DNA of 64,000 bases, taken from Gemmatimonadales bacterium (GTDB taxonomy: Bacteria > Gemmatimonadota > Gemmatimonadetes > Gemmatimonadales > GWC2-71-9). The translations under genes were made by a program, and so were the position numbers. The notes below the pieces were generated by a model that was given only the letters and a program-made list of their open reading frames with translations, had not been told where the DNA came from and searched no databases. Within the stretch, counting starts at the first letter, position 1. The number at the start of each line of letters is the position of its first letter. Positions 11,981 through 61,530 of this stretch are shown piece by piece. The DNA lies in NCBI GenBank assembly GCA_035699205.1, contig DASSBA010000209.1, positions 2,062 through 66,061 of the forward strand, read 5' to 3'.

Positions 11981-12319
11981 ATGGCCGCGACGAATGCCCC
12001 GACTGTCCACGTCACCGATGCCTCGTTCGCCAGCGAGATCGAGCAGGCCGATGGACTCGTGCTGGTCGACTTCTGGGCGACGTGGTGCGGCCCGTGCCAG
12101 ATCGTGGCCCCCGTGCTCGAACAGCTCGCCGGTGAGTACGCCGGTCGCGCCAAGGTCGCCAAGGTGGATGTCGACGCCAACCAGCGCACCGCAATGCGCT
12201 TCAACGTCCGCTCGATCCCGAGCATCCTCTTCTTCAAGAACGGCCAGCACGTCGATACCGTGATCGGCGCGGTGCCGAAGGCGACGCTGGAGGGGAAGAT
12301 CAAGCAGCACCTGGCATAG
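11981..12319 (+). CDS. trxA: Thioredoxin
   Basis: WCGPCQ active site. The ATG at 11981 is preceded by GGGAGA. The stop TAG is at 12317-12319. Confidence 0.92.
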   Translation: MAATNAPTVHVTDASFASEIEQADGLVLVDFWATWCGPCQIVAPVLEQLAGEYAGRAKVAKVDVDANQRTAMRFNVRSIPSILFFKNGQHVDTVIGAVPKATLEGKIKQHLA

Positions 12320-12392
12320 ACGGAAGGACGGAAAGACGGAAAGACGGAAGGTGCGGCCCTTTCGTCCTTCCGTCTTTCCGTCTTTCCGTCCT
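12319..12392. repeat. Hairpin with tandem 8-mer arms: (GACGGAAR)x4 then (YTTCCGTC)x4
   Basis: Left arm 12319-12351, right arm 12359-12392. One register gives 26 perfect bp (12325-12350 with 12367-12392). An alternative register gives about 32 bp with 2 mismatches and 1 GU around an 8-nt loop. The element fills the trxA-rsmI spacer. Confidence 0.9.
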
Positions 12393-12402
12393 ACCTTTCT
12401 CC

Positions 12403-13236
12403 ATGCCCGGCACCCTCTACGTCGTCGCGACCCCGCTGGGGAACCTGGGCGACCTCTCGCCGCGCGCGGCGGAGCTGCTCCGGACCGTGCCGGTGGTGGC
12501 GGCGGAGGACACTCGCCGGACCCGTGGTCTGCTCTCCCATCTCGGGGCCGCGCCCAGGCTTCTCAGCTACCACGCACACTCGGACGGCCGGCGGCTCGAA
12601 AAGCTGCTCGGGATACTGGCGGAGGGGCGCGACGTCGCCCTCGTCTCCGACGCGGGCACACCCGCGGTGAGCGACCCTGGCGCCGACCTCGTGGCGGCGG
12701 CGCGCGAGGCCGGCGTCGCGGTCGTGCCCATCCCCGGCCCCTCGGCGGTCGCGACCGCGCTCTCGGCCGCGGGCCTCGGCGGCGACCGTTACCTGTTTCT
12801 CGGCTTCATCCCGCGCAAGGGCGGCGAGCGGACCCGACTGCTCGCACGTGCGGCTGCGGAGGAATCGAGCGTCGTGTTCTTCGAGGCGCCGCCCCGGCTG
12901 GCAGACCTGCTGGCGGATCTGACCCGGGCGGCGGGACCCGGACGGCGCGCCGTGGTGGCGCGGGAACTGACCAAGCTCCACGAGGAGTTCCGTGCGGGGA
13001 CGCTCGAGGAGCTTGCGGGCTATTATTCGGAGCATCCGCCGCGCGGGGAGCTCACCATCGTGCTCGAGGGAACCGGCACGCCGCCCGAGCCGCCGGACCG
13101 CACCGAGGATGCCGTGCAGCAGGCCGCTCTACTCCTCGCGGAAGGTCTTACTCGCCGGGAGGTGGTGCGCCGGTTGAGCCAGAGCCTGGGCCTGTCGCGG
13201 AACGATGCCTACCGGCTGGTGATGGAGCTGCCGTGA
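12403..13236 (+). CDS. rsmI: 16S rRNA (cytidine1402-2'-O)-methyltransferase
   Basis: MPGTLYVVATPLGNLGDLSPRAAELL...VAAEDTRRT, tetrapyrrole-methylase fold typical of RsmI. Confidence 0.9.
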   Translation: MPGTLYVVATPLGNLGDLSPRAAELLRTVPVVAAEDTRRTRGLLSHLGAAPRLLSYHAHSDGRRLEKLLGILAEGRDVALVSDAGTPAVSDPGADLVAAAREAGVAVVPIPGPSAVATALSAAGLGGDRYLFLGFIPRKGGERTRLLARAAAEESSVVFFEAPPRLADLLADLTRAAGPGRRAVVARELTKLHEEFRAGTLEELAGYYSEHPPRGELTIVLEGTGTPPEPPDRTEDAVQQAALLLAEGLTRREVVRRLSQSLGLSRNDAYRLVMELP

Positions 13237-13913
13237 TGAGACTGCGCGCGCTCGCGCTCGTGCTGCTGGTCGCGACCGCCGCCGCCGCCCCGCCGCCCCC
13301 CGGCGACGCCGGCGCGGTCATGACCATCGGCCGCCTGCACTACGACGGCGGCGGGGACTGGTACGCCAACCCCTCGAGCCTGCCGAACCTCCTCACCGCC
13401 ATCCGGACCCGCACCGGACTGCGGGTCACCGCGGAGGAAAAGGTCGTCACGCTCGATGACGACGAGCTCTGGAACGTGCCCTACATCTACATGACCGGGC
13501 ACGGCAACGTGCACTGGAGCGACCGGGACCTGGCGACGCTGCGCCGCTATCTCCTGCAGGGCGGGTTCCTCCATGCGGACGACAACTACGGGATGGACGC
13601 GTCGATCCGCCGAGAGCTGGCGCGACTCTTCCCCGACCATCCCCTGGTCGAGGTCCCGCTGGACCACCCGGTGTATCACCTGGTATTCGACTTCCCCAAG
13701 GGGATTCCCAAGATCCACCAGCACGACGGCAAGCCGGCGCAGGGATTCGGCATCTTTCTCGACGGCCGCCTCGCCGTGTACTACTCCTACCAGTCCGACC
13801 TCGGGGACGGGTGGGAGGATTTCGAGGTGCATCATGATCCGCCGGCCAAGCACGAGGCGGCGCTCCGCATGGGTGTGAATCTCTTCGCCTACGCCGTGGG
13901 GTACGGGGGGTGA
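13236..13913 (+). CDS. DUF4159 domain protein (secreted)
   Basis: MRLRALALVLLVATAAAA signal, then GRLHYDGGGDWYANPSSLPNLL...PYIYMTGHGNV...GGFLHADDNYGMD, as in the DUF4159 family. The start ATG overlaps the rsmI stop by 1 nt (sequence TGATG). Confidence 0.75.
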   Translation: MRLRALALVLLVATAAAAPPPPGDAGAVMTIGRLHYDGGGDWYANPSSLPNLLTAIRTRTGLRVTAEEKVVTLDDDELWNVPYIYMTGHGNVHWSDRDLATLRRYLLQGGFLHADDNYGMDASIRRELARLFPDHPLVEVPLDHPVYHLVFDFPKGIPKIHQHDGKPAQGFGIFLDGRLAVYYSYQSDLGDGWEDFEVHHDPPAKHEAALRMGVNLFAYAVGYGG

Positions 13914-20284: not shown

Positions 20285-22810
20285 GTGAGCGCAGCCCCCT
20301 CCGAACGCATCGCCCCCGGCGTCCGGGCCTTCCTGGCCGGCGAGATCGCCGACGCCGGCGGCCGCGAGGTGTCGTTCGTCGCCCAGGTGGACCGGGACGG
20401 CGTCGTGACCGCCGCGCGCGCGGTGGCGCGCGGCACGGTGGACATGGTGCTCGCGCTCCCCGGCATAGCCGTCCGCGGCGAAATGCTGCTGCACAACCAC
20501 CCGAGCGGCCGGCTCGACCCCTCCGGAGCCGACCTCGACGTGGCCGCCCGTCTGCACGACGCCGGTATCGGCTTCGGGATCGTGGACAACGGGGCCACCG
20601 CCCTCTACGTGGTGGTGGAGGTGCCGCACGATCGGCCGGTGCTCCGGATCGACCCCTTCGAAGTGATCGCCACGCTCGGCGAGCGCGGGCCCGTTGCCGG
20701 GCAGCTCGGCCAGTTCGAGGACCGGCGCAGCCAGCGCGACATGGCCGCCTACGTCGCGGACGGCTACAACGACGGCGGGGTGCAGCTGCTGGAGGCGGGC
20801 ACCGGGGTGGGGAAGTCGTTCGCCTACCTGGTGCCCGCGCTCCACTGGGCGCGCGTCAACGGCGAGCGCACGGTCGTCAGCACCAACACGATCAATCTCC
20901 AGGAACAGCTGGTCGGCAAGGACCTGCCGCTGCTCCGGCGCGCCCTCCAGACCGCCGATTACAAGCCGACGTTCGCGCTGCTCAAGGGTTGGCGGAACTA
21001 TCTCTGCCTGTCGCGCATGCACCAGGCGGTGGCGTCCCAGCGGACGCTGCTGGAGCAGGAGAAGCTCGACGAGCTGGTCGGCATCGCCGAGTGGGCGGGG
21101 CACACCGCCGACGGTACGCTCAGCGATCTCCCGGTCACGCCGTCGGGCGAGGTGTGGGACGAGGTGAGCGCCGAGGCCGACCTCTGCACCCGCCTCAAGT
21201 GCACGCACTTCGACAAGTGCTTCCTGTTCCGGGCCCGGCGGCGCGCCGCCGAGGCGGACGTGGTGGTGGTCAACCACCACCTGCTCGCCGCCGACCTCTC
21301 GGTGCGCCAGGCGCAGGACAACTGGGAGGAAGCGGCGGTGCTGCCGCCCTACCGGCGGCTCGTCCTGGACGAGGCGCACCATCTCGAGGACGTCGCGGCC
21401 GCCCACCTCGGCACCCAGGTGAGCAGCCGGGCGGTGCGCCGCCTGCTCGCGCGGTTCGAGCGGAACGGCCGCGGGCTGGCGCCGACGCTGGCGCACGAGC
21501 TGATGGGCCGGAGCGATCTGCTGAGCCGGGCCAGTCTGGATCTGCTCAAGCAGCGGCTGCTGCCGGCGCTGGCCGACGCGCGCCGCGCCGGCGAGGCGAT
21601 GTTCCTCCGGCTGTACCAGCGGCTCGACGGATTGCCGGCGGGGCAGCTCCGGCTGGCGGACGACTTCGCGACCGACGAGATCTGGGACCAGGGGCTCGGC
21701 TTCGAGCTCGACGCCACGCTCGGGGCGTTCCGCTCGCTGCGGGAGACCGTCGAGACCATCGCCGACCGGCTGGCGGAGTCCGAGGAGACCGAACGCCGGG
21801 GCGCCATTCTCCAGGAGCTGCGCGCGGTCATGCGCCGGCTGGACAGCGTCTCGGACGGCCTCAACCGCACGCTCCGGCCCGGCGCCCGGGCGAACGGGGC
21901 CGGAGCACCGACCGTGCGTTGGATGGAGCGGAGCCAGCGCGGGCAGCAGGTGAGCCTCTCGGCGGTGCCGCTCGACCTCGCGCCCGTGCTCCGGGCGCTC
22001 CTGTTCGACCGGCTCGACACCGTGGTGCTCACGAGCGCCACGCTCGCCGCGGGCGGGGAGTTCGGCTTCCTGGAGTCGCGCCTCGGCCTGGCGGGCGAGG
22101 ACTCCCCGGTCACGGTGCGCGAGGCCTTCGCGTCGCCGTTCGACTATCCCTCGCAGTGCGTGTTCGGCATCCCCAACGACATGCCCGAGCCGCGCGAGGA
22201 CGAGCACGCCCACGCCACCGCGGTGGTGCAAGTCGTCACCGACCTGGCCTACGCGTCGGACGGCGGGATGTTCGTGCTCTTCACCAGCCACGCGGCACTG
22301 CGCAAGGCGGCACACGAGGTGCGGGCGGTGCTCGGCAGCCGCTGGCCCATCCTGGTGCAGGGAGAGGGGCCGCGCGACGTCCTTCTCCGGCGGTTCCGCG
22401 AGGCGGAGAACGCCATCCTGCTCGGCACGGATTCGTTCTGGGAAGGGGTCGATGTGCCCGGCCGCGCGCTCCGCACGCTGGTGCTCAACAAGCTACCTTT
22501 CAAGGTGCCCAGCGAGCCGCTCACGGCGGCGCGGCTCGAGCGGCTGGCGGAAGAGGGGCAGGACGGGTTCATGAACTATCTCCTGCCCCACGCCGCGCTC
22601 AAGCTCAAGCAGGGCTTCGGCCGCCTGATCCGGAGCCGGCAGGACATGGGCGTCGTGGTGCTGCTCGACAGCCGGGTGGTCACCAAGCGCTATGGGCCGC
22701 TGCTCCTCGGGGGCCTGCCGCGCGCCGAGCGGATCATCGGGAGCTGGGCGCAGGTCCGTACCAGGTGCGAGGACTTCTTCGCCCGGCACGGCATCGGGGC
22801 GGTCGCGTGA
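20285..22810 (+). CDS. dinG: RadC-like JAB/MPN+ domain fused to a DinG/XPD-family Fe-S DNA helicase
   Basis: The N-terminal ~115 aa carry GREVSF...HNHPSGRLDPSGADLD (E...HxHx7Sx2D JAMM motif in its RadC form). Then come Walker A AGTGVGKS, four Cys (CLSR, CTRLKCTHFDKC), DEAH (VLDEAHHLE), and helicase C motifs (LLGTDSFWEGVDVPG, QGFGRLIRS). GTG start. Confidence 0.85.
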   Translation: MSAAPSERIAPGVRAFLAGEIADAGGREVSFVAQVDRDGVVTAARAVARGTVDMVLALPGIAVRGEMLLHNHPSGRLDPSGADLDVAARLHDAGIGFGIVDNGATALYVVVEVPHDRPVLRIDPFEVIATLGERGPVAGQLGQFEDRRSQRDMAAYVADGYNDGGVQLLEAGTGVGKSFAYLVPALHWARVNGERTVVSTNTINLQEQLVGKDLPLLRRALQTADYKPTFALLKGWRNYLCLSRMHQAVASQRTLLEQEKLDELVGIAEWAGHTADGTLSDLPVTPSGEVWDEVSAEADLCTRLKCTHFDKCFLFRARRRAAEADVVVVNHHLLAADLSVRQAQDNWEEAAVLPPYRRLVLDEAHHLEDVAAAHLGTQVSSRAVRRLLARFERNGRGLAPTLAHELMGRSDLLSRASLDLLKQRLLPALADARRAGEAMFLRLYQRLDGLPAGQLRLADDFATDEIWDQGLGFELDATLGAFRSLRETVETIADRLAESEETERRGAILQELRAVMRRLDSVSDGLNRTLRPGARANGAGAPTVRWMERSQRGQQVSLSAVPLDLAPVLRALLFDRLDTVVLTSATLAAGGEFGFLESRLGLAGEDSPVTVREAFASPFDYPSQCVFGIPNDMPEPREDEHAHATAVVQVVTDLAYASDGGMFVLFTSHAALRKAAHEVRAVLGSRWPILVQGEGPRDVLLRRFREAENAILLGTDSFWEGVDVPGRALRTLVLNKLPFKVPSEPLTAARLERLAEEGQDGFMNYLLPHAALKLKQGFGRLIRSRQDMGVVVLLDSRVVTKRYGPLLLGGLPRAERIIGSWAQVRTRCEDFFARHGIGAVA

Positions 22811-27797: not shown

Positions 27798-29251
27798 CCG
27801 TGAGCGACGCGGGCGTCGCCGCCGTGGCCCCAGCGGGCCGCCACCTCACCCAGGCGGGCCAGCGCCGTCGACCGATCCATCACGGCGAGCAGCTCGTTCA
27901 CCGGCTCGGAGACGGTGGACCCGGTGAGTGCCACGCGCACCGGCTGCATCGCATCGCCCAGCTTGAGTGCGTTCGTCTCCGCGACCCGCTTGAGGCAGTC
28001 GAGGATGGGTGCGGTGGTCCAGGCGGTGGGCGGGAGCTGCTCGAGCGCCGCCGCCGCGAGGCGCAGGTTGGCGGCGAACGCGCCGCCCATCTTCCGGATG
28101 AGCGCCTCGCCCCTGGAGTCGAGCGTGCCCCGCGCGGGGTCGAGCCGGACCGCCACCCGCTCCGCGATCTGGAGCATCGTCCGCGAGCGGGCCTTCACCG
28201 CATTTACCAGCGGGGCGAGGTCCCGGCCCGCGGCCGGCACGTTCATGCGCGCGAGCTCGCGCTCTACCGCCGGTACCAGCTCCGCCGCGGGCAGCGCGGA
28301 GAGATACTCCCCGTTCATCCACTCGAGCTTGGTGATGTCGAAGACGGCTGCCTTCTTCTGGATCCCCTCGAGCGTGAACAGCCGGATCATCTCGGCGTCC
28401 GTGAGGATCTCCCGGTCGCCGCCGGGCGACCAGCCGAGCAGGGCGAGAAAGTTGCGCATGGCGGCCGGCCAGATCCCCAGGTCCTGGTAGTCGCCCACCG
28501 CGGTGGCGCCGTGCCGCTTCGAGAGCTTCTTGCCATCGGTGCCCAGGATCATCGGCACGTGGGCGAACACCGGGGGCGCATGGCCGAGCGCACGGTAGAG
28601 CGCGATCTGCTTCGGCGTGTTGGAGATGTGGTCGTCTCCCCGGATCACGTGGCTAATCCCCATGGCGATGTCGTCACTCACCACCGCGAGGTTGTAGATG
28701 GCGGTACCGTCGCTCCGGAGGATCACGAAATCGTCGAGATCCCGGCCCTGGAAGCTGATGCGGCCATGCACCGCGTCGTCCCAGGCGATCTCGTCATCCT
28801 GCAGCAGAAAGCGGAGCGTGAACGGCGTGCCGGCCGCGAGACGCGCCTCCAGTTCCGGGGCAGCAAGGCGGCAGCACCCGCGATCGTATCGAAACGCGCT
28901 GCCGGACGCCTCGGCCCGCGCGCGCTGGGCCTCGAGCTCCTCGCGGGTGCAGAAGCAGCGGTAGGCCTTGCCTTCGGCAAGGAGTCGCTCGGCGTCGGCG
29001 CGGTGGCGCGGCCCGTACTCGCCCTGGAAGAACGGTCCCTCGTCCCAGGGGATTCCCAGCCACCCGAGGCCGTCCAGGATCACCCGCGTGTGCGCCTCGG
29101 TGCTGCGCTCCCGGTCGGTGTCCTCGATGCGCAGCACGAAGGTGCCGCCGGTGTGGCGCGCGAACAGCCAGTTGAACAGCGCCGTGCGGGCCCCGCCGAC
29201 GTGCAGGTAGCCGGTGGGCGACGGGGCGAAGCGAACGCGCGGAGTGGTCAT
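27794..29251 (-). CDS. gltX: Glutamate--tRNA ligase
   Basis: MTTPRVRFAPSPTGYLHVGGARTALFNWLFAR...LRIEDTD...KLSKRHG (HIGH and KMSKS-type motifs). The track ORF 27794..29734 runs on through the tRNA gene and is an artefact upstream of 29251. Confidence 0.92.
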   Translation of the reverse strand: MTTPRVRFAPSPTGYLHVGGARTALFNWLFARHTGGTFVLRIEDTDRERSTEAHTRVILDGLGWLGIPWDEGPFFQGEYGPRHRADAERLLAEGKAYRCFCTREELEAQRARAEASGSAFRYDRGCCRLAAPELEARLAAGTPFTLRFLLQDDEIAWDDAVHGRISFQGRDLDDFVILRSDGTAIYNLAVVSDDIAMGISHVIRGDDHISNTPKQIALYRALGHAPPVFAHVPMILGTDGKKLSKRHGATAVGDYQDLGIWPAAMRNFLALLGWSPGGDREILTDAEMIRLFTLEGIQKKAAVFDITKLEWMNGEYLSALPAAELVPAVERELARMNVPAAGRDLAPLVNAVKARSRTMLQIAERVAVRLDPARGTLDSRGEALIRKMGGAFAANLRLAAAALEQLPPTAWTTAPILDCLKRVAETNALKLGDAMQPVRVALTGSTVSEPVNELLAVMDRSTALARLGEVAARWGHGGDARVAHG

Positions 29252-29270
29252 GGGGCCTGCCGGATGCGTG

Positions 29271-29306
29271 AAAGGTGAAAGGTGAGTGACTTCACCTTTC
29301 ACCTTT
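29271..29306. repeat. Hairpin with tandem 7-mer arms: (GGTGAAA)x2 / (TTTCACC)x2
   Basis: 15 perfect bp (29271-29285 with 29292-29306) and a 6-nt loop. It lies 13 nt past the 3' end of tRNA-Ser and 19 nt before the gltX start (both on the minus strand). Confidence 0.8.
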
Positions 29307-29319
29307 GGGTGTGGTCGGA

Positions 29320-29409
<90 letters not shown>

Positions 29410-29548
29410 AGAGGCGTGCAAAATCGCCGGTCTTCGACATCCAGGCAAGGGTTCGGCCATGTCTCCGGGACTTGCGGTGGCTCCCGGACCGTACAAGGTT
29501 TGACCTCCCACGAACTCCCAACCCGGACCGCGACGAGGACCCCCCCGC

Positions 29549-45976: not shown

Positions 45977-46531
45977 TCACTGCCCTCGGTCCGCCAGGAT
46001 CAGCCGGGTCGCGCTGGCGAGATCGCGCGTGGTCGGCCAGAGGCGGGCGTCGGGTCGCTGCGACTCGCGCGTGCCAGCGCCGGTGAGCAGCAGCACGCCC
46101 CGGCCGCCGAACGCGCCGGCGGCGGCGATGTCGCGGACCCGGTCGCCGACCCACCAGCTCCGGCTCAGATCCAGGCCGAGATCCGCCGCCGCCCGCTGAT
46201 AAAGCAGGGGGCCCGGCTTGCGGCAGGTGCAAGGTCCCGAGAGGTCGGGGTGGTGCGGGCAGTGATAGCGGGCCTCGAGCCGGGCGCCTTCGCGTGCGAG
46301 GAGCTCGTCGAGCCGCCTGGCCGTGGCGGCGTAGTCCGCCTCGTTCAGCAGCCCGCGGGCGATTCCGGACTGGTTGGTGACCAGGACGGCCGCGCGGCCC
46401 GCGGAGTTGAGCTTCCGGACCGACTCCGCCGCGCCCGGGAGGAGGCGGACGCCGGCCGGATCGCGGAGATAGTGGCGGTCCTCGATCAGCGTGCCGTCGC
46501 GATCGAGGAACACCGCCGGCCGGCCGTTCAT
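45977..46531 (-). CDS. gmhB: HAD-IIIA phosphatase, GmhB-like (D,D-heptose 1,7-bisphosphate phosphatase type)
   Basis: VFLDRDGTL, VTNQSGIARG, Zn motif CPHHPDLSGPCTCRKP, and WWVGDRVRD. Confidence 0.8.
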   Translation of the reverse strand: MNGRPAVFLDRDGTLIEDRHYLRDPAGVRLLPGAAESVRKLNSAGRAAVLVTNQSGIARGLLNEADYAATARRLDELLAREGARLEARYHCPHHPDLSGPCTCRKPGPLLYQRAAADLGLDLSRSWWVGDRVRDIAAAGAFGGRGVLLLTGAGTRESQRPDARLWPTTRDLASATRLILADRGQ

Positions 46532-47883
46532 GCCAGGAGGGCCTGCGCGAGCGCGCGGCTGATGATGGGCTCGACCTCCTCGGGGAGGGTGCGCGGATCG
46601 AGCAGCACCCGGCCGCCGCCGACGCGTGCCACCACCGCCGGCTCGCCCAGCCGAAGCCGGAGCGCGAGCCCGTCCGGACCGAGGTCGCCGGCGTCGAGGG
46701 CGACGAGCGTCGTCGGCAGGATCGCTCCGGGGAACGACCCGCCGCCGACCGCGCTCTCACCGGGCTGCAGCTCGGGCTGCAGCTCCGGCGGGCAGTGAAG
46801 GGCCAACCGTTCCGCTCGCGCCGCCAGCGCCTGCTCGCCGAGCGTGAGCATGCGCAGGACGGGGATCTCCCGGACCGCCGTGGCGGGGTCCTCGTAGAGA
46901 CCGAGCGTGGCTTCCAGGGCGGCGAAGGTCAGCTTGTCGGCCCTGAGGGCGCGCGCGAGCGGGTTGGCGCGACACCGCCCCACCAGGTCGCGCCGGCCGA
47001 CCAGGCATCCCGCCTGCGGTCCGCCGAGCAGCTTGTCGCCGCTGAAGAGGACGAGACCGGCGCCGGCCGCGACCGCGTCGGCCACGCGGGGCTCCGACGT
47101 GAGCCCCCAGGGGGCGAGGTCCGCCAGCAGTCCGCTCCCGACATCGTGGAGGTACGGAATTGCGGCCGCGTCCGCCAATTCCGCGAGCGAGGTCGGCTCG
47201 GGCGACGTGACGAACCCTCGCTGCTCGAAGTTGGAGCGGTGCACCGTCAGGACGGCGGCGACGCTTCCGCCCAGCGCTCGCCGGTAGTCGTCGAGGTGGG
47301 TGCGGTTGGTGGTGCCCACCTCGCGCAGCCGCGCGCCGCTCCGGGCGATGATGTCGGGGATCCTGAACGAGCCGCCGATCTCGATCAGCTCTCCGCGGGA
47401 GATGAGCACCTCCCGCCCCGCCGCCACCGCGTTGAGCGCCAGCACGAGCGCGCCCGCGGCGTTGTTCACCACCAGCCCGTCCTCGGCGCCGCTCACCCGC
47501 CCGAGCAGCTCGCGGCAGTGGTCCGAGCGGCTGCCGCGACGGCCGGTGCCGAGCTCGAGCTCGAGGTTGCTGTAGCCGCTCGCGATCGTGACGAGGGCCT
47601 GGACGGCGGCCTCGGCCAGCGGTGCGCGGCCGAGATTGGTGTGCAGGACCACACCCGTCGCGTTGAGCACCGGGCGGAGGCTCGGGCGGCGGCGCTCCAC
47701 CAGCCGCTCCCGGATCTCGGCGGCCCAGTCCTCCGGGCCGGCGTGCCGGACTCGCGCGGCGGCGAGTGCCTCACGCGCCGCCGCCACCACCATGGCGCGC
47801 GGCACGCTGACGAGCAGCGCCTCCACCTCGGCCTCCCGAAGCAGCCGGTCCACGGAGGGGAGCCGCCGGCGCCGGTCGGTCAC
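46528..47883 (-). CDS. selA: L-seryl-tRNA(Sec) selenium transferase
   Basis: LPSVDRLL N-terminus, NNAAGALVLAL, ISRGELIEIGGSFRIPD, EVGTTNRTHLDDY, and PLP-lysine motif FSGDKLLGGPQAG. The GTG start at 47883 overlaps the upstream stop. Confidence 0.88.
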   Translation of the reverse strand: MTDRRRRLPSVDRLLREAEVEALLVSVPRAMVVAAAREALAAARVRHAGPEDWAAEIRERLVERRRPSLRPVLNATGVVLHTNLGRAPLAEAAVQALVTIASGYSNLELELGTGRRGSRSDHCRELLGRVSGAEDGLVVNNAAGALVLALNAVAAGREVLISRGELIEIGGSFRIPDIIARSGARLREVGTTNRTHLDDYRRALGGSVAAVLTVHRSNFEQRGFVTSPEPTSLAELADAAAIPYLHDVGSGLLADLAPWGLTSEPRVADAVAAGAGLVLFSGDKLLGGPQAGCLVGRRDLVGRCRANPLARALRADKLTFAALEATLGLYEDPATAVREIPVLRMLTLGEQALAARAERLALHCPPELQPELQPGESAVGGGSFPGAILPTTLVALDAGDLGPDGLALRLRLGEPAVVARVGGGRVLLDPRTLPEEVEPIISRALAQALLA

Positions 47884-49250
47884 GGGGTCTTCCTGGCGGG
47901 CCGGTTGCGGAGCGAGTCGGGGCGCCGCTTCAGCGAGTCGGGCGCGGCCTTCAGCGAGTCGGGCCTCCGACCGAGCGAATCGGCGGCGCGCCGGAGCGAG
48001 TCCGGCGGCGGCGGCTTGGGGACCGCGAGCACGCCGCTCGCGTCTCCCGCCGCGCCGGTCACGTTCCGGATGCCCCGGAGATCGATGGCGTAGCGTCCGT
48101 CCGGCTTCCACGGCTGCTCGACTCTGAGCACGAGGCGGTCGCTGAGGGGCGGGCGCGTGGTGAGCGGCTTGGGCTCGGCCGCCCCGCGGGCGCCTGGTGC
48201 GCCCGGTGGCGCACCCTCCTCGACCTCCGCGATGCCCGGGCGCCGGGCGGCAGCCCGGTTGCGTGCGGCGGTGTCCCGCGCCGTCGTGTCGCGTGCCGTC
48301 GTATCGCGGCGGGTGGTATCGCGCGCCGCCCCAGCGCGCTGGTGGAGGCTGTCGTCCACCGGCTTGGGGAGCAGCGAGCTCACCCGCACGGGCGTCGAAT
48401 CGGGCAGGAGCCGAACCCTGGCCGCGGCGGCGGTCAGGCGCTGCCGCGGGTCGAGGCTCTGGGTGAGCTCGATGGTGGCGGACACGCTGTCGGCGACGGT
48501 GATGGTCCGGATGCGCGGCGGCGTCGTATCGTGCACGAACGCCCAGAGCTCACCCGCCGACGTCTTCCCCCGGGCCAGGCGCACGCTGTCGAACGCCTCG
48601 CGCGGGTCGAATCGCAGGTTGTGGTTCTGGTCGAGCACCCCGCGGACCAGGTACTCCCCCGCGGGCAGCGGGCCGAGGGAGATGTGACCGCTCGAGTCGG
48701 TCACCCCGCGGTAGGGGAGGCTGTCCGGCAGCAGGATCGCCTCGAGCAGCGCGGCCGGCGCCGGGCGGCTGGTGCTCCAGTCCACCACGGTGCCCTCGAT
48801 TTTCGCCGCCGGCAGGGGCGCGCCGGTCGTGAACGTCACGACGGCCCCGGTGTCGCTCCGGTTGCGCCGGAGATCGGTGACCCCCGGGAGCAGCTCCACC
48901 CGGTAGACGCGGTCGGCCCGCCAGCCTTCGCTCGGGCGCACGTCGATGCGGTCCCGGTGCCAGCTCACGTCCGGTACTCGAATGGCGGGCGAGAGGATGA
49001 TGAGCTTCTCCAGATCGCCCGTGCCGGTGCCTTCATTGGGCGTGGACCCCTCGGAGATGACCTCGTCGAAGCGGAACTCCACGCTCCCGCCGAAGTCCGG
49101 GATGCGGGCGAACGAGTCCGGGCGGGTGGCGAGGAGCTGCGGGGGTGAGATGTCGGGCGGGCCGCCGGGGGGCGGCTCGATGCGGGCGCAGGAAAGGAGC
49201 AACGGGACGGAGAGACGGAGGGACGGAGCGACGGAGCGACACAAGCCCAT
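47880..49250 (-). CDS. Lipoprotein with Ig-like (SbsA/Big_5-type) domains and basic C-terminal peptide repeats
   Basis: MGLCRSVAPSLRLSVPLLLSCARIE (lipobox LLLSC). Central beta-rich domains. The C-terminal region carries RDTT[AR] x4 and a [PA]DSL-containing 7-aa repeat x5. The start codon lies in the loop of the 49214..49296 hairpin. Confidence 0.7.
   Translation of the reverse strand: MGLCRSVAPSLRLSVPLLLSCARIEPPPGGPPDISPPQLLATRPDSFARIPDFGGSVEFRFDEVISEGSTPNEGTGTGDLEKLIILSPAIRVPDVSWHRDRIDVRPSEGWRADRVYRVELLPGVTDLRRNRSDTGAVVTFTTGAPLPAAKIEGTVVDWSTSRPAPAALLEAILLPDSLPYRGVTDSSGHISLGPLPAGEYLVRGVLDQNHNLRFDPREAFDSVRLARGKTSAGELWAFVHDTTPPRIRTITVADSVSATIELTQSLDPRQRLTAAAARVRLLPDSTPVRVSSLLPKPVDDSLHQRAGAARDTTRRDTTARDTTARDTAARNRAAARRPGIAEVEEGAPPGAPGARGAAEPKPLTTRPPLSDRLVLRVEQPWKPDGRYAIDLRGIRNVTGAAGDASGVLAVPKPPPPDSLRRAADSLGRRPDSLKAAPDSLKRRPDSLRNRPARKTP
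47905..48010 (-). repeat. In-frame 21-nt tandem repeat x5 encoding a 7-aa unit with [PA]DSL core
   Basis: The AGCGA[GA]TC[GC]GG motif recurs at 47911, 47932, 47953, 47974 (one-mismatch copy, GA swapped to AG) and 47995. It translates as PDSLRRAADSLGRRPDSLKAAPDSLKRRPDSLRNRP. Confidence 0.8.
48268..48330 (-). repeat. In-frame 15-nt tandem repeat x4 encoding RDTT[AR]
   Basis: Imperfect units gcggtgtcccgcgcc / gtcgtgtcgcgtgcc / gtcgtatcgcggcgg / gtggtatcgcgcgcc, read as ARDTTRRDTTARDTTARDTAARN. Confidence 0.75.
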
Positions 49251-49296
49251 CCGGGTGGCTTTCCGCTCCGTCGCTCCGTCGCTCCGTCCCTCCGTC
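49214..49296. repeat. Hairpin with tandem 8-mer arms: (GACGGAGS)x3.4 / (SCTCCGTC)x3.4
   Basis: 27 perfect bp (49214-49240 with 49270-49296) and a 29-nt loop (49241-49269). One arm ends 1 nt from the valS stop (49298-49300). The loop holds the ATG at 49250-49248. The other arm encodes residues 4-13 of the lipoprotein signal peptide. Confidence 0.9.
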
Positions 49297-49297
49297 C

Positions 49298-52521: not shown

Positions 52522-52671
52522 ATGAACGACCAACGCACGACCGCGCGCGGGCCCGAGCTGGGCCGGTGGATGTTCGTCGCCGCGCTGCTGCTCATCGGGC
52601 TGGGTCTCTACTTCGCCTTCGCGCCGAGGAGCGAGCCGCCCGCGCCCGCGGCGGCGCAGGAGAGTCGGTGA
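52522..52671 (+). CDS. Small hypothetical membrane peptide (49 aa) coupled to thrS
   Basis: MNDQRTTARGPELGRWMFVAALLLIGLGLYFAF... has one TM helix. Its stop overlaps the thrS GTG (GTGA). Support is positional only. Confidence 0.4.
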   Translation: MNDQRTTARGPELGRWMFVAALLLIGLGLYFAFAPRSEPPAPAAAQESR

Positions 52672-54593
52672 GCGACACGATCCGGATCACGCTTCCGGAT
52701 GGCAGCGTGCGCGAGGTGCCGCAGGGCACGACGCCGCGCCAGCTCGCCGAGGGCATCGGCGCGGGCCTCGCGCGCGCGGCGCTCGCGGCCCGGGTGGACG
52801 GCACCGTCCGGGATCTGGACCGCCCGCTCGAGGCCGACGCCGCCGTGGCCATCCTGACCGAGCGCGACCCGGAAGCCCTCGAGCTCCTGCGCCACTCTTC
52901 GGCGCACATCCTGGCCACGGCGGTCCGCGAGCTCTTCCCCGGCGCCGGGATCGGGTTCGGGCCGCCGATCGAAGACGGCTTCTACTACGACTTCGAGGTG
53001 GACCGGCCGTTCACCCCCGAGGACCTCGCGCGTATCGAGGCCAAGATGGCGGAGGTCGCGGCGCGGGACTATCCGTTCGAGCGGGAAGTGGTGGACCGCC
53101 GCGAGGCCAACCGCCGGTTCGCCGACGATCCGCTCAAGCTCGAGCGGATCGGCGAACTGGGGGACGACGAGACCATCACCGTCTACACCGACGGCCCGTT
53201 CCAGGACCTCTGCCGGGGTCCCCACATCCCCCGCACCGGCCGGCTCAAGCACTTCAAGCTGCTCTCCGCCGCGGGCGCGTACTGGCGGGGCGATGAGCGC
53301 CGCCAGATGCTCCAGCGGATCTACGGCACGGCCTGGTTCAGGAAGGAGGAGCTCGACGGGTATCTCCACCGGCTCGAGGAAGCGCGCAAGCGCGACCACA
53401 GGCGGGTCGGACGCGAGCTCGACCTGTTCATGTTCCACCCCTCGGCGCCGGGCGCGGTGTTCTGGACCGAGCGGGGGACGACGCTGTACAACCTGCTGGT
53501 CGAGTTCGTTCGCGAGCGGCAGGCGGCGGCGTTCAAGGAGATCAAGACGCCGCTCATCTACAACAAGATGCTGTGGGAGATCTCGGGGCACTGGGGGAAG
53601 TACCGGGACAACATGTTCCTGGTGCTGAACAAGGAGACCGGGGAGCATGATTCGTCGCTCAAGCCGATGAACTGCCCGTCCCACTACCTGCTGTACTCCG
53701 CGAAGAAGCACTCCTACCGCGAGCTGCCGCTCCGCTACGTGACCTTCGACGTGCTGCACCGGAACGAGGTGACCGGCGCGCTCTCGGGGCTCACCCGCGT
53801 GCGCCAGTTCGCCCAGGACGACTGCCACGTGTTCCTGACCGACGGGCAGATCGTGGACGAGGTGAAGTTCCTCATGGACTTCATCCTGGCCTACTATCGC
53901 ACGTTCGGGCTGGAGCCCAGCCTCAAGTTCGCCACCCGGCCCGAGACCCGGATCGGGAGCGACGAGCTGTGGGACCGCGCCGAGGGCGCGCTGCGCGGCG
54001 CGCTGGAGGCGACCGGCATGGGCTACGAGCTCAAGCCCGGCGATGGGGCGTTCTACGGTCCCAAGATCGACTTCGACGTGACCGACTCGATCGGCCGGAG
54101 CTGGCAGCTCGGCACCATCCAGCTCGACTACAACGCGCCCGAGCGGTTCGACCTGGTCTACGTGGGCGACGACAACACCGAGCACCGGCCCGTCGTCATC
54201 CACCGGGCCGTGAGCGGCTCGTTCGAGCGGTTCATCGCCATCCTCATCGAGCACTTCGCGGGGGCGTTCCCGGTCTGGCTGGCGCCCGAGCAGGTACGGG
54301 TGATCCCCATCTCCGACGCGCAGATCGACGCCGCGCGCGGCATTACCGAGCGGCTCGCGGCGGCTGGAATCCGGGCGCATCTCGACGACCGGAGCGAGAC
54401 GCTCAATTACCGCATCCGCGAAGGCGAAGTCGCGAAGATCCCGTACATGGCCGTGGTCGGCCAGCGGGAGGCGGAGAGCGACAGTGTGGCACTCCGGGTG
54501 CGGGGCGCGGGCAGGAAGCAGGACGTGCTGACGGTTCAGGCGTTCCTCGATCGGGTCACCGGCGAGGTGCGCTCGCGCGCGCTGGCGCCCTGA
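52668..54593 (+). CDS. thrS: Threonine--tRNA ligase
   Basis: TGS domain ([13 protein letters not shown]), editing-domain HSSAHILA, class II core (FRNE-type [22 protein letters not shown]), and a C-terminal anticodon-binding domain. Confidence 0.93.
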
Positions 54594-54661
54594 GGCTCGC
54601 CCTACCGGGACCCGGGGAGCCCGCCTATCTTGCCCTCGCGAACACTGGACCCGAGGTGCAT

Positions 54662-57308: not shown

Positions 57309-58153
57309 GTCGCGCCGCCGTCATCGGCGCGGGCACCATGGGCAACGGTATCGCCCACGTCTTCGCGCAGCATGGGTGGGCGGTGGCGCTGATCGACACG
57401 GCGCCGGCCGCCCTCGAAAAGGCCACGGCGACCATCCGGGCCAATCTCGACCGGCAGGTGAAGAAGGGGACGCTGGCGCCAGAGGCGCCGGCCGAGGTGC
57501 TGGGACGCATCACCACCGCCACCGAACTCGGGGCCGCAGCGGGCGCGACGCTGGTGGTCGAGGCGGCGAGCGAGAATCCGGCGGTCAAATTCGCGGTCTT
57601 CGAGCAGCTCGACCGCGAGTGCGGGCCGGACGCGATCCTGGCCACCAACACCAGCTCGATCTCGGTCACCGAAATCGCCGCCCGTACGCGCCGGCCGGGG
57701 CAGGTGATCGGGATGCATTTCATGAACCCGGTGCCGGTCATGCAACTCGTCGAGGTGATCCGGGGCCACGCCACGAGCGACGCCACCACGCGAATGGTGA
57801 TGGAGACGGCCGCCGCGCTGGGCAAGACGCCGGTCGAGGTGAACGACTATCCGGGTTTCATCTCCAACCGCGTCCTGATGCCGATGGTCAACGAGGCGAT
57901 CTTCTGCGTCATGGAAGGCGTGGCGGCGCCGGAGGCGATCGATACCGTCATGAAGCTCGGGATGGCGCACCCGATGGGTCCGCTCGCGCTCGCCGATTTC
58001 ATCGGCCTCGACGTCTGCCTGGCCATCCTGGAGGTGCTGCAGCATGGCCTGGGCGACGACAAGTACCGGCCCTGCCCGCTGCTCCGGAAGATGGTGGCCG
58101 CGGGGGACCTGGGGAGGAAGAGCGGGCGGGGGTTTTTTCTCTATAAGTCGTGA
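57305..58153 (+). CDS. hbd: 3-hydroxybutyryl-CoA dehydrogenase
   Basis: [15 protein letters not shown]..., [39 protein letters not shown]. Confidence 0.92.
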
Positions 58154-58256
58154 GTCGTGAGTCGTAAGTCGTGAGTCGTAAGGCATGACTCAGCGCCGAT
58201 CACACACCGTCCGACTCACAAGGTCGACTCACGACTCACGACTCACGACTCACGAC
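58147..58256. repeat. Hairpin with tandem 7-mer arms: (GTCGTRA)x5 / (TCACGAC)x4+
   Basis: About 32 bp with one A-C mismatch (58147-58178 with 58225-58256) and a loop of about 46 nt. The hbd stop TGA (58151-53) is inside the first repeat. The element ends 13 nt before the next start (58270). Confidence 0.88.
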
Positions 58257-58269
58257 CTGCGACTATCCC

Positions 58270-59337
58270 ATGGACCTCCTCGCCCAGATGCACGCGCTCG
58301 GCCACGAGCAGGTACTGTTCTCTCACGACCCCAGCTGCGGCTACTTCGGCATCATCGCCATCCACGACACCACGCTCGGCCCCGCGCTCGGCGGCACCCG
58401 ATTCTGGCAATACGCCTCCACCGAGGACGCCACCACCGACGCGCTCAGGCTGGCGCGCGGGATGACCTACAAGTCGGCCGTCATGGGGATCAATCTCGGC
58501 GGGGGCAAGTCGGTGATCGTGGGCGACAACAAGCGGCCGGACCGGGAAGCGCTGTTTCGCGCCCACGGCCGCTTCATCGAGACGCTCGGCGGCCGCTACA
58601 TCACCGCCGAAGACATCGGCACCAGCCCTGCCGACATGGAATACATCAAGCTGGAAACCGACCACGTGGCCGGCCTGCTGGGTCTCTCCGGCGACCCGTC
58701 GCCGGTGACCGCCTTCGGCGTGTACGTCGGGATGAAGGCGGCGGCCAGGGCCCGCTGGGGGGACGATCGGCTGGAGGGAAAGACGGTGGCGGTGCAGGGA
58801 TGCGGCCACGTGGCGACGCATCTCTGCCGGCATCTGCACGCGGACGGGGTCCGGCTCATCGTGACCGACATCGACGGCGAGAAAGTCCGGCGGGTGATGG
58901 ACGAGACCGGCGCCGGCTGCGTGGCCCCGGAGGCGATCTACGACCAGGTCGCCGACATCTATGCGCCCTGCGCCCTGGGCGCCACCATCAACGACGAGAC
59001 GCTGCCGCGGCTCAAGGTGGAGATCATCGCCGGGGCCGCCAACAACCAGCTCGCGGAGGACCGCCACGGCGACCTGCTCGAGCAGCGCGGGATTCTCTAC
59101 GCGCCGGACTACGTGATCAACGGCGGCGGCGTCATCAACGTCTATGGCGAGCTGCACCGCTGGCCGCACGAGCGCTCGAAGCAGAAGGCCGGCGAGATCT
59201 ACGATACGCTGCTCCGCATCTTCGACATCGCCACGCGCGAGCGCATCCCGACCTACCGCGCGGCGGACCGGCTGGCCGAGGAGCGGATCGCGGCGGTGGG
59301 GGGGCTGGACCGGATGTGGATGGGCGACGGACGGTGA
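58270..59337 (+). CDS. Leucine/valine/phenylalanine dehydrogenase family enzyme
   Basis: [22 protein letters not shown] (catalytic Lys), [16 protein letters not shown] Rossmann motif. Confidence 0.88.
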
Positions 59338-59403
59338 GCGGTAAGCGGTGAGCGGTAGTTTCCGGGTGCCGCCGCTCACCGCTCACCGCTTACCGCTCAC
59401 CGT
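59331..59403. repeat. Hairpin with tandem 7-mer arms: (GCGGTRA)x3.7 / (TYACCGC)x3.7
   Basis: 26 perfect bp (59331-59356 with 59378-59403) and a 21-nt loop. The stop TGA (59335-37) is inside the first repeat. One unit has a G-to-A change on the left arm matched by C-to-T on the right arm. Confidence 0.9.
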
Positions 59404-59533: not shown

Positions 59534-60817
59534 ATGAGTCTGGATCACAACGCATCGCTCCGGGAGGCCGATCCGCTGGTGGCGCGGCTCATCGACCGCG
59601 AACTGCGCCGCCAGCAGAACGGCCTCGAGCTGATCGCGAGCGAGAACTTCGCCAGCCGGGCGGTCATCGATGCCATGGGTACGCCGCTCACCAACAAGTA
59701 CGCCGAGGGCTACCCGGGGCGGCGCTACTACGGCGGGTGCGAGGTGGTGGACGAGATCGAGCAACTGGCCATCGACCGCCTGAAGGAGTTGTTCGGCGCG
59801 GAGCACGCCAACGTGCAGCCGCACTCGGGCGCGCAGGCCAACTTCGCGGCCTTCATGGCCGTCATCAAGCCGGGCGCCACCATCATGGGGATGTCGCTGC
59901 CGCACGGCGGCCATCTCACACATGGCGCGCCGGTCAGCCACAGCGGCGTGATCTGGCGGGCGGTGCACTACGGCGTGAACCCCGCCACCGGCCTCATCGA
60001 TTACGACGCGGTCCGCCGGCTGGCCCTGCAGGAGCAGCCGGCGCTCGTCATCGCGGGCGGGAGCGCGTATGCGCGCGTCATCGACTTCCCGGCCTTCCGC
60101 TCGATCGCCGACGAGGTGGGCGCGATCTTTCTGGTGGACATGGCCCACTTTGCCGGGCTGGTCGCGGGCGGCGTCTATCCCTCGCCGGTGCCGCACGCGC
60201 AGGTGGTCACCAGCACCACCCACAAGACGCTCCGCGGGCCGCGGGCCGGACTCATTCTCTCGATCGCCGAGCACGCCAAGGCCATCGACAAGTCGGTCTT
60301 CCCCGGCACCCAGGGCGGGCCGCTGGAACACGTGATCGCCGCCAAGGCCGTGGCCTTCGGCGAGGCGCTCACCCCCGACTTCCGCGTCTACGCCCGGCGG
60401 GTGGTGGAGAATGCGCAGACCCTGGCCGACGCGCTGATCGAGCGGGGCTTCGACATCGTCTCCGGCGGGACCGACTCGCACCTGATGCTGGTGGATCTCC
60501 GGCCCAAGGGCCTCACCGGCAAGGTGGCCGAAAAGACGCTCGACCAGGCCGGGATCACGGTCAACAAGAATACCGTGCCCGACGACCCGCAGTCCCCGTT
60601 CGTGACCAGCGGGATCCGGCTGGGCACCCCGGCCCTCACGACGCGCGGGATGGGACGGGCCGAAATGGTCCGCGTGGCCGAGCTGATCGACCGCGCGCTC
60701 ACCCGTCCCGACGAGGCCACCCTCGGCCGGGTGAAGCAGGAGGTCGAGGAGCTGACCTCCACGTTCCCGCTGTACCAGTCGGCGAAACCCGCCGGCCGCG
60801 TGCGGCGGAGCGCCTGA
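59534..60817 (+). CDS. glyA: Serine hydroxymethyltransferase
   Basis: ELIASENF...[16 protein letters not shown]...[12 protein letters not shown] (PLP lysine). Confidence 0.93.
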
Positions 60818-60839
60818 GCTCCGGGGAGCCGTCGCCCGC

Positions 60840-61226
60840 GTGAACGAACTGCAGTTTGCCGAAGATGTCCTCGCGCGCATCCGCGCGCGGGGCGGTCCCT
60901 ATCACGAGCGCAGCTTCCTCTTCATGCTCGCCGCCATCGAGTACCTGCAGTCGCGCCTGGACGCGCGGCGCCACGTGGACGGCGCCGAGCTCGCGTGGGC
61001 CTGCCGCGATTTCGCCCGGGCGCAGTTCGGCCTGCTCGCGCCGCACGTGCTGGCGCACTGGGGCGTCACGCGCACCGAGGACTTCGGCCGCATCGTCTTC
61101 ACGCTGGTGGAGGTGGGACTGCTGGTCACCCAGCCGGGCGACCAGGAGGGGGACTTCGAGGGTGTCTTCGACTTCGCCGAGGCGTTCGGCGACGTCTACG
61201 AGTGGTCCGGCGTGCGGGGCGCCTGA
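60840..61226 (+). CDS. Hypothetical protein, possibly Minf_1886-like (TIGR04138) family
   Basis: HVDGAELAWACRDFARAQFGLLAPHVLAHWGVTRTEDFGRIVFTLVEVGLL resembles that family as I remember it. GTG start. Confidence 0.55.
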   Translation: MNELQFAEDVLARIRARGGPYHERSFLFMLAAIEYLQSRLDARRHVDGAELAWACRDFARAQFGLLAPHVLAHWGVTRTEDFGRIVFTLVEVGLLVTQPGDQEGDFEGVFDFAEAFGDVYEWSGVRGA

Positions 61227-61257
61227 CCGGGGGACGGGGTCCATCATCGGGGGGCAC

Positions 61258-61452
61258 ATGGACAAGACCGAATGGCCGGCGTGCCAGAAGTGCTCGCAGG
61301 GTACCCTCATTCCGCTCTCCGATTACGGGCGCGAAGGCGCGCCGATCACCTATAAGGCCTGGGTCTGCACCAACCCCGAGTGCGGCTTCAATCTCCGGAT
61401 CGACAACGGGGAGATCTCCTTCGGGCGGGCGATCGGGCAGAGCTACAAATGA
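61258..61452 (+). CDS. Small zinc-ribbon protein (64 aa)
   Basis: CQKC ... CTNPEC gives two Cys pairs. The ATG is preceded by a GGGGGG purine run. Confidence 0.5.
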   Translation: MDKTEWPACQKCSQGTLIPLSDYGREGAPITYKAWVCTNPECGFNLRIDNGEISFGRAIGQSYK

Positions 61453-61455
61453 GGA

Positions 61456-61530
61456 GCGGTGAGCGGTGAGCGGTGAGCGGTATACGCTTCCGTCGCTCAC
61501 CGCTCACCGCTCACCGTTTACCGCTCACCG
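61456..61530. repeat. Hairpin with tandem 7-mer arms: (GCGGTGA)x3.8 / (TCACCGC)x3+ (same unit as 59331..59403)
   Basis: 23 perfect bp (61457-61479 with 61494-61516) plus 2 GU, with a loop of about 10 nt. An extra TTTACCGCTCACCG unit allows a slipped register. It starts 4 nt after the stop (61450-52) and ends 6 nt before the nnr ATG (61537). Confidence 0.88.

Follow-up and report, generated by a model that had tools for sequence, protein, structure and literature searches.

Palindromic hairpins with inverted simple-sequence repeat arms at gene 3′ ends in Gemmatimonadales

Introduction

The closest precedents for the elements reported here are paired, inverted arrays of short tandem repeats in the intergenic DNA of Geobacter metallireducens and Xanthomonas. 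We analyzed a 64,000-nt stretch of a Gemmatimonadales contig (DASSBA010000209.1, positions 2,062–66,061 of the forward strand; hereafter, the window). It carries six hairpins, designated S1–S6, whose arms are tandem copies of a 7–8 nt unit and of its reverse complement.

In G. metallireducens, Aklujkar et al. (2009; PMC2700814) describe paired tandem-repeat "global regulator binding sites" of classes 1–3. These are opposite-strand pairs with variable spacing, made of 3–5 tandem 7–9 nt repeats, with 8–24 pairs per class and one pair located between proB and proA; as a guess, the authors read them as IHF/HU sites. In X. campestris and X. axonopodis, heptamer arrays of the (GGGAATC)n/(GGGANTN)n type form 70–75 inverted pairs per genome, convergently oriented and capable of folding into stem-loops, with about four copies preferred (Rehm et al. 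2015; PMC4692102). Of the two arrays, the G-rich one is found on the coding strand, at the stop codon or overlapping it, and its complement shortly before the next open reading frame (ORF). Most pairs separate co-directional ORFs, 16% separate convergent ones, and spacers between divergent ORFs are depleted; the arrays vary strongly in length and sequence among close relatives and have no established function (PMC4692102). Xanthomonas arrays also serve as variable-number tandem-repeat markers.

A further class of extragenic palindromes comprises the repetitive extragenic palindromic (REP), BIME and REPIN elements of Enterobacteria and Pseudomonas, which lie past genes in co-directional or convergent spacers. 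Their arms are conserved, their loops and flanks variable; they are dispersed within the genome, and the transcribed stem-loops stabilize upstream mRNA. REP arms are not tandem repeats, each genome has one consensus, and the elements are linked to RAYT (IS200/IS605-like Y1) transposases. Stabilization of mRNA by REP was reportedly demonstrated by Newbury in 1987 and by Liang, Rudd and Deutscher in 2015, with an effect on the upstream gene when the REP lies within about 15 nt of the stop codon; further studies of REP, BIME and REPIN are said to include those of Higgins (1982), Espeli (2001), Nunvar (2010), and Bertels and Rainey (2011). Direct heptamer arrays known as short tandemly repeated repetitive (STRR) sequences were reportedly described in cyanobacteria by Mazel in 1990. 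Among 170 sets of TAACTGA repeats of Beggiatoaceae in 'Maribeggiatoa', one is inverted (PMC4679880). Our literature search on hairpins or terminators of Gemmatimonadetes and on stem-loops of STRR found nothing relevant.

S1–S6 are members of a class of extragenic palindromes that is dispersed and evolves fast, each arm being an array of a 7–10 nt simple-sequence repeat inverted relative to the other. This class is the Gemmatimonadales counterpart of the Xanthomonas (GGGAATC)n pairs and the G. metallireducens paired repeats. What is new relative to these precedents is the phylum and the diversity of units; no function has ever been established for such pairs. A first-pass annotation of the window had found no named family for them, and indeed neither a name nor an Rfam match exists. 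The novelty that it implied was overstated, as the architecture had been described before without a name (PMC4692102 and PMC2700814).

Results

Six inverted array pairs in the window

Arrays called by Tandem Repeats Finder (TRF) were paired whenever two of equal period lay inverted to each other and at most 80 nt apart. Exactly six inverted pairs of 7–8 nt arrays were obtained from the window, at the sites where the first-pass annotation had placed its hairpins (Table 1), and none from 30 dinucleotide-preserving shuffles of it; the same scan of the window gave no pair in direct orientation. All twelve arms were independently recovered by TRF, and nearly all strong 7–8 nt arrays of the window are inverted-paired. 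The structures exist far above chance.

The annotated units, stems and loops were found as described. Arms measure 15–37 nt and are 86–100% complementary, with loops of 5–46 nt. Twenty of the 25 longest inverted repeats of the window belong to S1–S6, and the inverted-repeat search reports each site in several pairing registers, confirming the suggestion that the arms can pair in slipped registers. The window has a G+C content of 71.5% and a non-coding share of 5.6%. All six hairpins fall within that share (chance about 3 × 10−8) and occupy about 13% of it.

Folding singles out the same sites. Among about 35 spacers of at least 25 nt, only those of S1–S6 are strongly structured (z-scores of −12.2, −3.1, −11.6, −7.4, −4.1 and −7.9, respectively; all others above −2.5). 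S2 has a predicted stability of −23 kcal/mol; the other five range from −58 to −81 kcal/mol. Rfam covariance models at the gathering threshold matched only two tRNAs in the window and none of the hairpins.

Table 1. Coordinates of the six hairpins and of two neighboring genes in the window.
Feature	Position	Strand	Structure or basis of the call
S1 hairpin	12318..12392	+	5′ arm ~4 GACGGAAR, loop 6–8 nt, 3′ arm ~4.4 YTTCCGTC
S2 hairpin	29268..29306	-	~2.5 GGTGAAA per arm, 5-nt loop, 15–17 bp stem
S3 hairpin	49205..49297	-	~4.4 GACGGAGS, loop 23–25 nt, ~4.1 SCTCCGTC
S4 hairpin	58146..58264	+	~5 GTCGTRA, 45-nt loop with decayed units, ~4.6 TCACGAC
S5 hairpin	59331..59403	+	~3.7 GCGGTRA, loop 14–21 nt, ~4.4 TYACCGC
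S6 hairpin	61454..61530	+	4 GCGGTGA, 12-nt loop, ~5.3 TCACCGC
tRNA-Ser(GCU), upstream neighbor of S2	29317..29410	-	tRNA call (Rfam match)
Zinc-ribbon protein gene, 64 aa, upstream boundary of S6	61258..61452	+	conservation in relatives

Position at gene 3′ ends

Gene context was taken from Pfam matches of the flanking genes and from codon-likelihood gene calls. S1 separates trxA from a TP_methylase (rsmI-like) gene; it begins within the trxA stop TAG (12317–12319) and ends 10 nt before the TP_methylase ATG (arms of 33 nt at 91% complementarity or, alternatively, 30 nt at 97%; ΔG −58.6 kcal/mol). S2, the shortest of the six (ΔG −23), lies 10 nt past tRNA-Ser(GCU) and 16 nt ahead of the gltX start at 29251. 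S3 directly follows the valS stop codon (49300–49298) and ends about 3 nt ahead of the predicted, uncertain TTG start of a Big_5-domain gene (34 nt at 94%, alternatively 27 nt at 100%; ΔG −80.9). The first unit of S4 contains the stop TGA (58151–58153) of a 3-hydroxyacyl-CoA dehydrogenase gene; downstream, a Leu/Glu-type dehydrogenase gene (LeuDH) begins with an ATG at 58270, 13 nt past the hairpin (32 nt at 97%; ΔG −63.5). The LeuDH stop TGA (59335–59337) is in turn contained in the first unit of S5, with the glyA start 131 nt downstream (26 nt at 100%; ΔG −63.4). The start of S6 lies 2 nt past the stop of a gene for a 64-aa zinc-ribbon protein, and 6 nt separate the end of the hairpin from the ATG of nnr at 61537 (23 nt at 100%, alternatively 28 nt at 93%; ΔG −62.7).

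Five of the six hairpins thus begin on the upstream stop codon or no more than 2 nt away from it, the exception being S2 after its tRNA. The annotation had counted four, on or up to 4 nt past the stop; its stop anchoring stands and its count does not. Co-directional flanks, also claimed there, hold for all six, although the plus-strand ORFs that it apparently used for S2 and S3 are spurious, both elements being on the minus strand. No T-tract follows any of the six, as had been stated.

The zinc-ribbon protein (MDKTEWPACQKCSQG...CTNPECG...) shows 73–100% amino acid identity, mostly above 90%, in 64 of 80 Gemmatimonadales loci, which identifies it as the product of a real gene. It has no Pfam match when embedded in a longer ORF, and its gene is easily overlooked by ORF-length or score filters; our codon-likelihood caller missed it in most loci, which was corrected afterwards.

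The same placement is seen away from the window. A metagenome scan for three GCGGTRA units, a 3–33 nt loop and three complementary units returned 39 contigs, whose 68 flanking proteins form 62 clusters, i.e., about 33 unrelated loci for this unit. Eighteen hairpins lie between co-directional, 10 between convergent and 2 between divergent genes, and 9 contexts are cut by a contig end. Distances from the hairpin to the adjacent stop codon have a median of −1 nt (n = 45; range −23 to +37, one outlier of 165), which means that the array often supplies the stop codon; the distance to the adjacent start has a median of 43 nt (range 12–377). At convergent pairs the hairpin overlaps or adjoins both stop codons. 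Taken together, these contexts and distances tie the element to gene 3′ ends and not to starts: the elements start at or overlap stop codons and are rare between divergent genes. Nor are they purely intra-operon. The annotation had read them as intra-operon RNA elements, which fits the read-through junctions described below and does not fit the 10 convergent sites among the 30 classified.

Different units at the same junctions in related genomes

A contig scan with the LeuDH protein provided 80 loci from relatives, all of them metagenome-assembled genomes (MAGs) of Gemmatimonadales with 67–93% identity (1.21 Mb). The array-pair detector found 49 further tandem-arm hairpins in them, with periods of 7 (34 hairpins), 8 (8), 9 (6) and 10 nt (1). 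Together with the four to five unit families within the window, this amounts to about 24 families.

A given gene junction holds different units, a plain hairpin or nothing, depending on the genome (Table 2). Junctions without a hairpin can be as tight as 1–8 nt; at the S6 slot, for instance, locus L018 reads TAG-C-TTG where the window has a filled junction. Such operon-like spacing implies that the downstream gene must be transcribed through the hairpin where one is present, and it upholds the annotated point that no room is left for a promoter.

Table 2. Occupancy of four slots in related genomes, surveyed with a stem finder; "other hairpin" denotes a stem of at least 9 bp. At S5, the survey filters missed four hairpins (the window and three relatives, including L035 and L038) assigned to this slot by the unit-sharing analysis.
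Slot	Genomes with slot	Tandem-arm	Different units	Other hairpin	No hairpin
S3	38	8	8	14	16
S4	72	11	7	21	40
S5	24	0	0	15	9
S6	55	22	15	14	19

Judged from these junctions, element turnover appears fast, and two slots hint at how arrays may arise. The S4 unit, GTCGTGA, corresponds to the final codon of the upstream gene together with its stop; that gene ends in TCG-TGA in relatives both with and without an array (L001, L003, L016). L003 and L016 carry at this slot a plain 13-bp hairpin, GTCGTGAGTCGCG/CGCGACTCACGAC, corresponding to about 1.5 units, against five units in the window. This plain hairpin is the likely precursor of the S4 array, which would have been enlarged by slippage. At the S6 slot, L017 has a 9-bp proto-hairpin of the S6 unit, present in 4–5 copies in the window. 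In this comparison of orthologous spacers, which the annotation had suggested, unit type and unit number both vary at a slot.

Part of the other hairpins in Table 2 represents a second, unrelated REP-like palindrome family (GTCATCCTGAGCGnAGCGAAGGATC and its complement), which occupies the same stop-to-start junctions in some relatives: upstream of LeuDH in L015, L032 and L039, and downstream of the zinc-ribbon gene in L070 and L034. We found 20 half-sites of this family in 10 loci, always intergenic, and none in the window. This suggests that stop-to-start junctions are general landing pads for palindromic elements.

Unequal and unpaired arrays also occur. In L067 (9895–10001, upstream of LeuDH), about 13 direct GTGACCT/GTGACCG copies fill the spacer with only a short terminal hairpin, a large unpaired array in a slot with paired arrays elsewhere. 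The arms of L023 (9897–9993) and L021 (2956–3059) differ widely in copy number (2.3 vs. 11.1 and 4.3 vs. 9.6). These two leave a long unpaired C/T-rich, G-poor stretch 3′ of the stem, resembling a Rho-loading site by composition.

Dispersal of GCGGTRA elements and diversity of units

Five of the metagenome hits (L082, L083, L094, L108 and L112) share a common outer boundary and a common order of TGA and TAA variant units, while their loops and flanks are unrelated and the similarity ends exactly at the hairpin ends. Shared boundaries and unit order in unrelated contexts are REP-like and suggest copying between sites. Units are shared by 17% of comparisons within the same genome at different slots, by 21% between different genomes at the same slot, and by 7.7% between different genomes at different slots. 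Although not conclusive, this pattern fits vertical descent at a slot with some spread within genomes. As to features of the MITE type, a junction can be filled or empty, the element takes up the entire spacer, and we see no target-site duplication.

The family is also present outside high-GC genomes, since L117 (142–215) contains a perfect GCGGTGA/GCGGTAA hairpin in a contig of 51% G+C with AT-rich flanks. This recurrence at many loci, together with the strand symmetry of the elements, would suit a DNA-level role in which a protein binds the inverted arrays as a multimer. IHF/HU, as guessed by the Geobacter authors (PMC2700814), or another nucleoid protein might serve, as might cold-shock-domain proteins, which cover about 7 nt of single strand each: CspB binds heptamer repeats, according to a citation in PMC4679880. 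However, about 24 unrelated unit families with periods of 7–10 nt in one clade, four to five of them in one genome, leave no single sequence-specific protein that fits, and a period of 7–8 bp does not match the helical repeat of DNA. We consider protein binding at the DNA level very unlikely.

Fixed polarity of the arms

The G-rich arm is 5′ and the C-rich arm 3′ in 53 of 55 hairpins, which is valid on both strands because the element is a palindrome; by a count from the unit list, G-rich units make up 22 of the 24 families. Among plain intergenic hairpins the bias is absent (15 vs. 8). Loops tend weakly to be C-rich on the sense strand (18 vs. 5 in the GCGGTRA metagenome set; 25 vs. 19 in the orthologous loci), significantly so in the metagenome set only.

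For the Xanthomonas and Nostoc arrays, folding into a G-quadruplex with an i-motif has been proposed, and the elements described here have the same G-rich strand polarity and position rules (PMC4692102). Yet the six window arms carry 0–1 GGG tracts each, where four G-tracts are required, and most units (GCGGTGA, GTCGTGA, GGCTATT and others) are unable to form three-tetrad quadruplexes. We rejected this candidate, and it is almost certainly wrong here.

Two other candidate regularities were also discarded. An excess of units in the downstream arm is confined to the non-independent orthologous loci (29 vs. 9, compared with 9 vs. 11 in the independent set). Having a stop codon in every frame of the 5′ arm is not a defining property, as just 23 of 49 5′ arms contain any stop triplet.

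Relation to termination and to translation starts

The hairpins might be terminators or attenuators that dispense with a U-tract and act in both directions at convergent genes, the long stem being perhaps assisted by NusA, NusG or Rho and presenting a closed stem at every 7–8 nt step. Their location at gene 3′ ends agrees with this: a third lie between convergent genes and touch both stops, few lie between divergent genes, and S2 follows a tRNA gene. The 3′-arm units of S1 and S2 contain TTT, a minority of the hairpins have T-rich tails, and in Xanthomonas, transcripts began or ended at arrays somewhat more often than at controls (PMC4692102). T-rich tails are not general, though. At least five T residues occur in the 10 nt after the stem at 13 of 75 hairpins, against mirrored A-rich heads at 17 of 75, so there is no T-tail enrichment. 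The average composition of these 10 nt is C 0.40, T 0.26, G 0.18 and A 0.16, and sites with a consensus hairpin plus T-tract are not above chance (2 found vs. 3.6 expected).

In addition, conventional terminators of the clade look different. Downstream of tRNA-Met, many relatives (L002, L003, L006, L011, L020, L023 at 20705–20735, L024, L027, L028, L033 and others) have a classical-looking GC stem of 8–14 bp followed by TTTCTCA, TTTTCC or TTTTTTAT, which indicates that the clade uses conventional terminators and that the tandem-arm hairpins are a different thing. At S1, S3, S4 and S6 the next gene begins 3–13 nt past the stem, and with no room for a promoter, efficient termination would silence it. 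A ribosome terminating at a stop codon inside the stem would also hinder its folding. We accordingly regard a terminator or attenuator role as improbable, in agreement with the annotated view that these are not classical intrinsic terminators.

A translational role would have the hairpin join the upstream stop to the downstream start for shunt-like re-initiation, or have the G-rich arm mimic a Shine–Dalgarno (SD) sequence and the C-rich arm an anti-SD. In many Gemmatimonadales cases the stop is indeed at the 5′ base and the start 0–17 nt from the 3′ base, and an SD is present in only 1 of 18 genes starting within 20 nt of a hairpin, compared with 35% overall in these loci. But this scarcity is forced, as the C-rich arm fills the space, and the units are as SD-like as shuffles matched in composition (3.67 vs. 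3.65, p = 0.5), on which ground mimicry was rejected. Nor does such a role suit S2, which has a tRNA upstream, or S5 and the bulk of the metagenome cases, where the next start is a long way off (median 43 nt, maximum 377), or the third of the sites that separate convergent genes. To a translational role we give hardly any credence. Within the window, the rsmI-like gene (12403), LeuDH (58270) and nnr (61537) start 6–13 nt past a very stable stem without an SD, while GGAG is found 5–8 nt upstream of the start in many LeuDH orthologs that lack such a hairpin.

Other repeats and calls in the window

A 21-nt tandem repeat at 47911–47964 (2.5 copies, 91% matches) is in-frame-sized and unrelated to the hairpins; it sits at the meeting point of the minus-strand genes 46528–47883 and 47880–49202. 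ARAGORN calls a minus-strand tRNA-Tyr at 54072–54166, inside a confidently coding plus-strand gene (52668–54593). It has no Rfam tRNA match at the gathering threshold and is probably a false positive.

Discussion

Preferred explanation and evidence against it

We tentatively favor, at slightly less than an even chance for the whole package, the explanation that these are slippage-grown, partly copied, read-through REP-like palindromes acting as a barrier or processing stem at mRNA 3′ ends. Arms would lengthen and shorten through replication slippage of the unit, and whole elements would occasionally be copied between sites in the fashion of REP. RNA polymerase would mostly read through the hairpins, because the downstream genes have no room for promoters, and the transcript would fold into a stem-loop of 15–46 bp. 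This stem-loop may then work like a REP element or an intercistronic processing hairpin and not like a classical terminator: it would block 3′ exonucleases and/or be the target of a double-strand-specific RNase, thereby uncoupling the fates of the upstream and downstream cistrons. The barrier or processing role is suggested by analogy with REP elements and by position.

Several results weigh against this explanation. About a third or more of the related genomes have no hairpin at a given slot, so the hairpin appears dispensable. Of 52 hairpins whose direction of transcription is known, 28 fold more stably as sense RNA and 23 as antisense (p = 0.79). G-U pairs are equally frequent in both (131 vs. 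134, sense vs. antisense), and mirroring of variant units between the two arms does not exceed that under permutation (p = 0.19). With equal folds, equal G-U pairing and no mirroring, there is no sign of selection on the sense RNA or for exact pairing, and the RNA-level part of the first-pass annotation found no support. The G-rich-first polarity is not explained by a REP-like or processing model. As for copying, a single metagenome sample supplied four of the five near-identical elements, and the genome effect on unit sharing (permutation p = 0.055) makes copying between sites suggestive only. No transposase or target-site duplication was found in the sequence covered, i.e., the 64-kb window and MAG slices of up to 21 kb.

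The elements might instead be a neutral or selfish by-product of slippage or REP-like copying, persisting where a strong hairpin is harmless (past stop codons, and not in promoters, 5′ untranslated regions or coding sequence) and having no function in the cell. Slots often vacant in relatives, rapid turnover of units and copy numbers, the absence of sense-strand asymmetry and of a mirrored compensatory pattern, and the occupation of the same slots by other palindromic families all agree with it. Heptamers, moreover, are the commonest long simple-sequence repeat unit in bacteria, and Xanthomonas arrays likewise vary between close relatives. On the other hand, slippage alone does not predict that nearly all strong arrays of the window are inverted-paired with no direct pair. 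The strict G-rich-first polarity and the use of one unit in both arms need selection or a copying mechanism, and the elements account for 13% of the non-coding share of a highly compact region. We hold a purely neutral or selfish origin to be less likely than not, yet close behind the preferred explanation.

A bolder proposal goes beyond the read-through palindromes that we prefer. The arrays of Gemmatimonadota, Xanthomonas and Geobacter might form one cross-phylum class of functional gene-end elements with fixed polarity, in which the repeat-built arms are themselves the mechanism. They would offer a closed stem beside the polymerase or ribosome every 7–8 nt or in a slipped register, and so allow U-tract-independent, tunable and bidirectional attenuation or 3′-end formation, its strength being reset whenever slippage changes the copy number. 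We think this a long shot.

Significance

Elements of this kind are found across an entire order of abundant soil bacteria, most of them uncultured. Xanthomonas and Geobacter independently show the same architecture, rules of position and polarity, with the polarity and the position relative to stop codons of the Geobacter pairs not given in the accessible part of PMC2700814. At stake is whether a general REP-like class of extragenic palindromes is made from simple-sequence repeats, how high-GC genomes that have few classical terminators keep neighboring genes apart in their transcripts, and the reason why the G-rich arm comes first. In practical terms, such hairpins can break short-read assemblies and confuse the prediction of gene ends and operons in MAGs.

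Comparison with known systems

STRR and TAACTGA arrays resemble the present elements in being intergenic tandem heptamers that are abundant and lineage-specific. Unlike them, they are essentially direct only, lie mainly just upstream of start codons and form no hairpins. Intrinsic terminators share with S1–S6 a GC-rich hairpin just 3′ of a stop codon or tRNA, often between convergent genes. Here, in contrast, there is no U-tract, stem length is two to four times as great, and the stem contains the stop codon and ends a few nucleotides before the next gene.

The Xanthomonas pairs are alike in architecture, with two inverted 7-nt arrays of at least two copies close together. They are also alike in the position rules (a median of −1 nt to the stop; 18 co-directional, 10 convergent and 2 divergent sites here), in the variation of copy number and sequence at the same intergenic site among relatives, and in the G-rich-first polarity, as "convergent orientation" reads. 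Two of the relatives (L062 and L064) carry essentially the GGGANTN heptamer. The differences are that one unit family prevails genome-wide in Xanthomonas whereas about 24 families occur here, four to five of them in the window; that periods of 8–10 nt are also present here, and the phylum is another; and that many Xanthomonas arrays are unpaired whereas nearly all strong arrays of the window are paired. The Xanthomonas units contain G3 tracts, which are absent from the units here, so that the quadruplex interpretation does not transfer.

The G. metallireducens sites, compared from their published description, have the same paired opposite-strand tandem-array architecture. Reverse-complementing their class 2 unit, TCTCCGTS, gives the S3 unit (GACGGAGA / GACGGAGN; window 49205–49240). 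The same units thus recur across phyla (S3 with Geobacter, L062 and L064 with Xanthomonas). Geobacter has three fixed unit classes, against many here; a multi-copy single consensus holds here for GCGGTRA and not for most units.

As in REP, BIME and REPIN, the elements are extragenic palindromes with near-identical arms in different contexts, as seen among the metagenome contigs. They differ from REP in their tandem-repeat arms and in their longer stems, of up to about 46 pairs. Without our claiming membership, REP/BIME elements are, by analogy, what these hairpins most plausibly work like.

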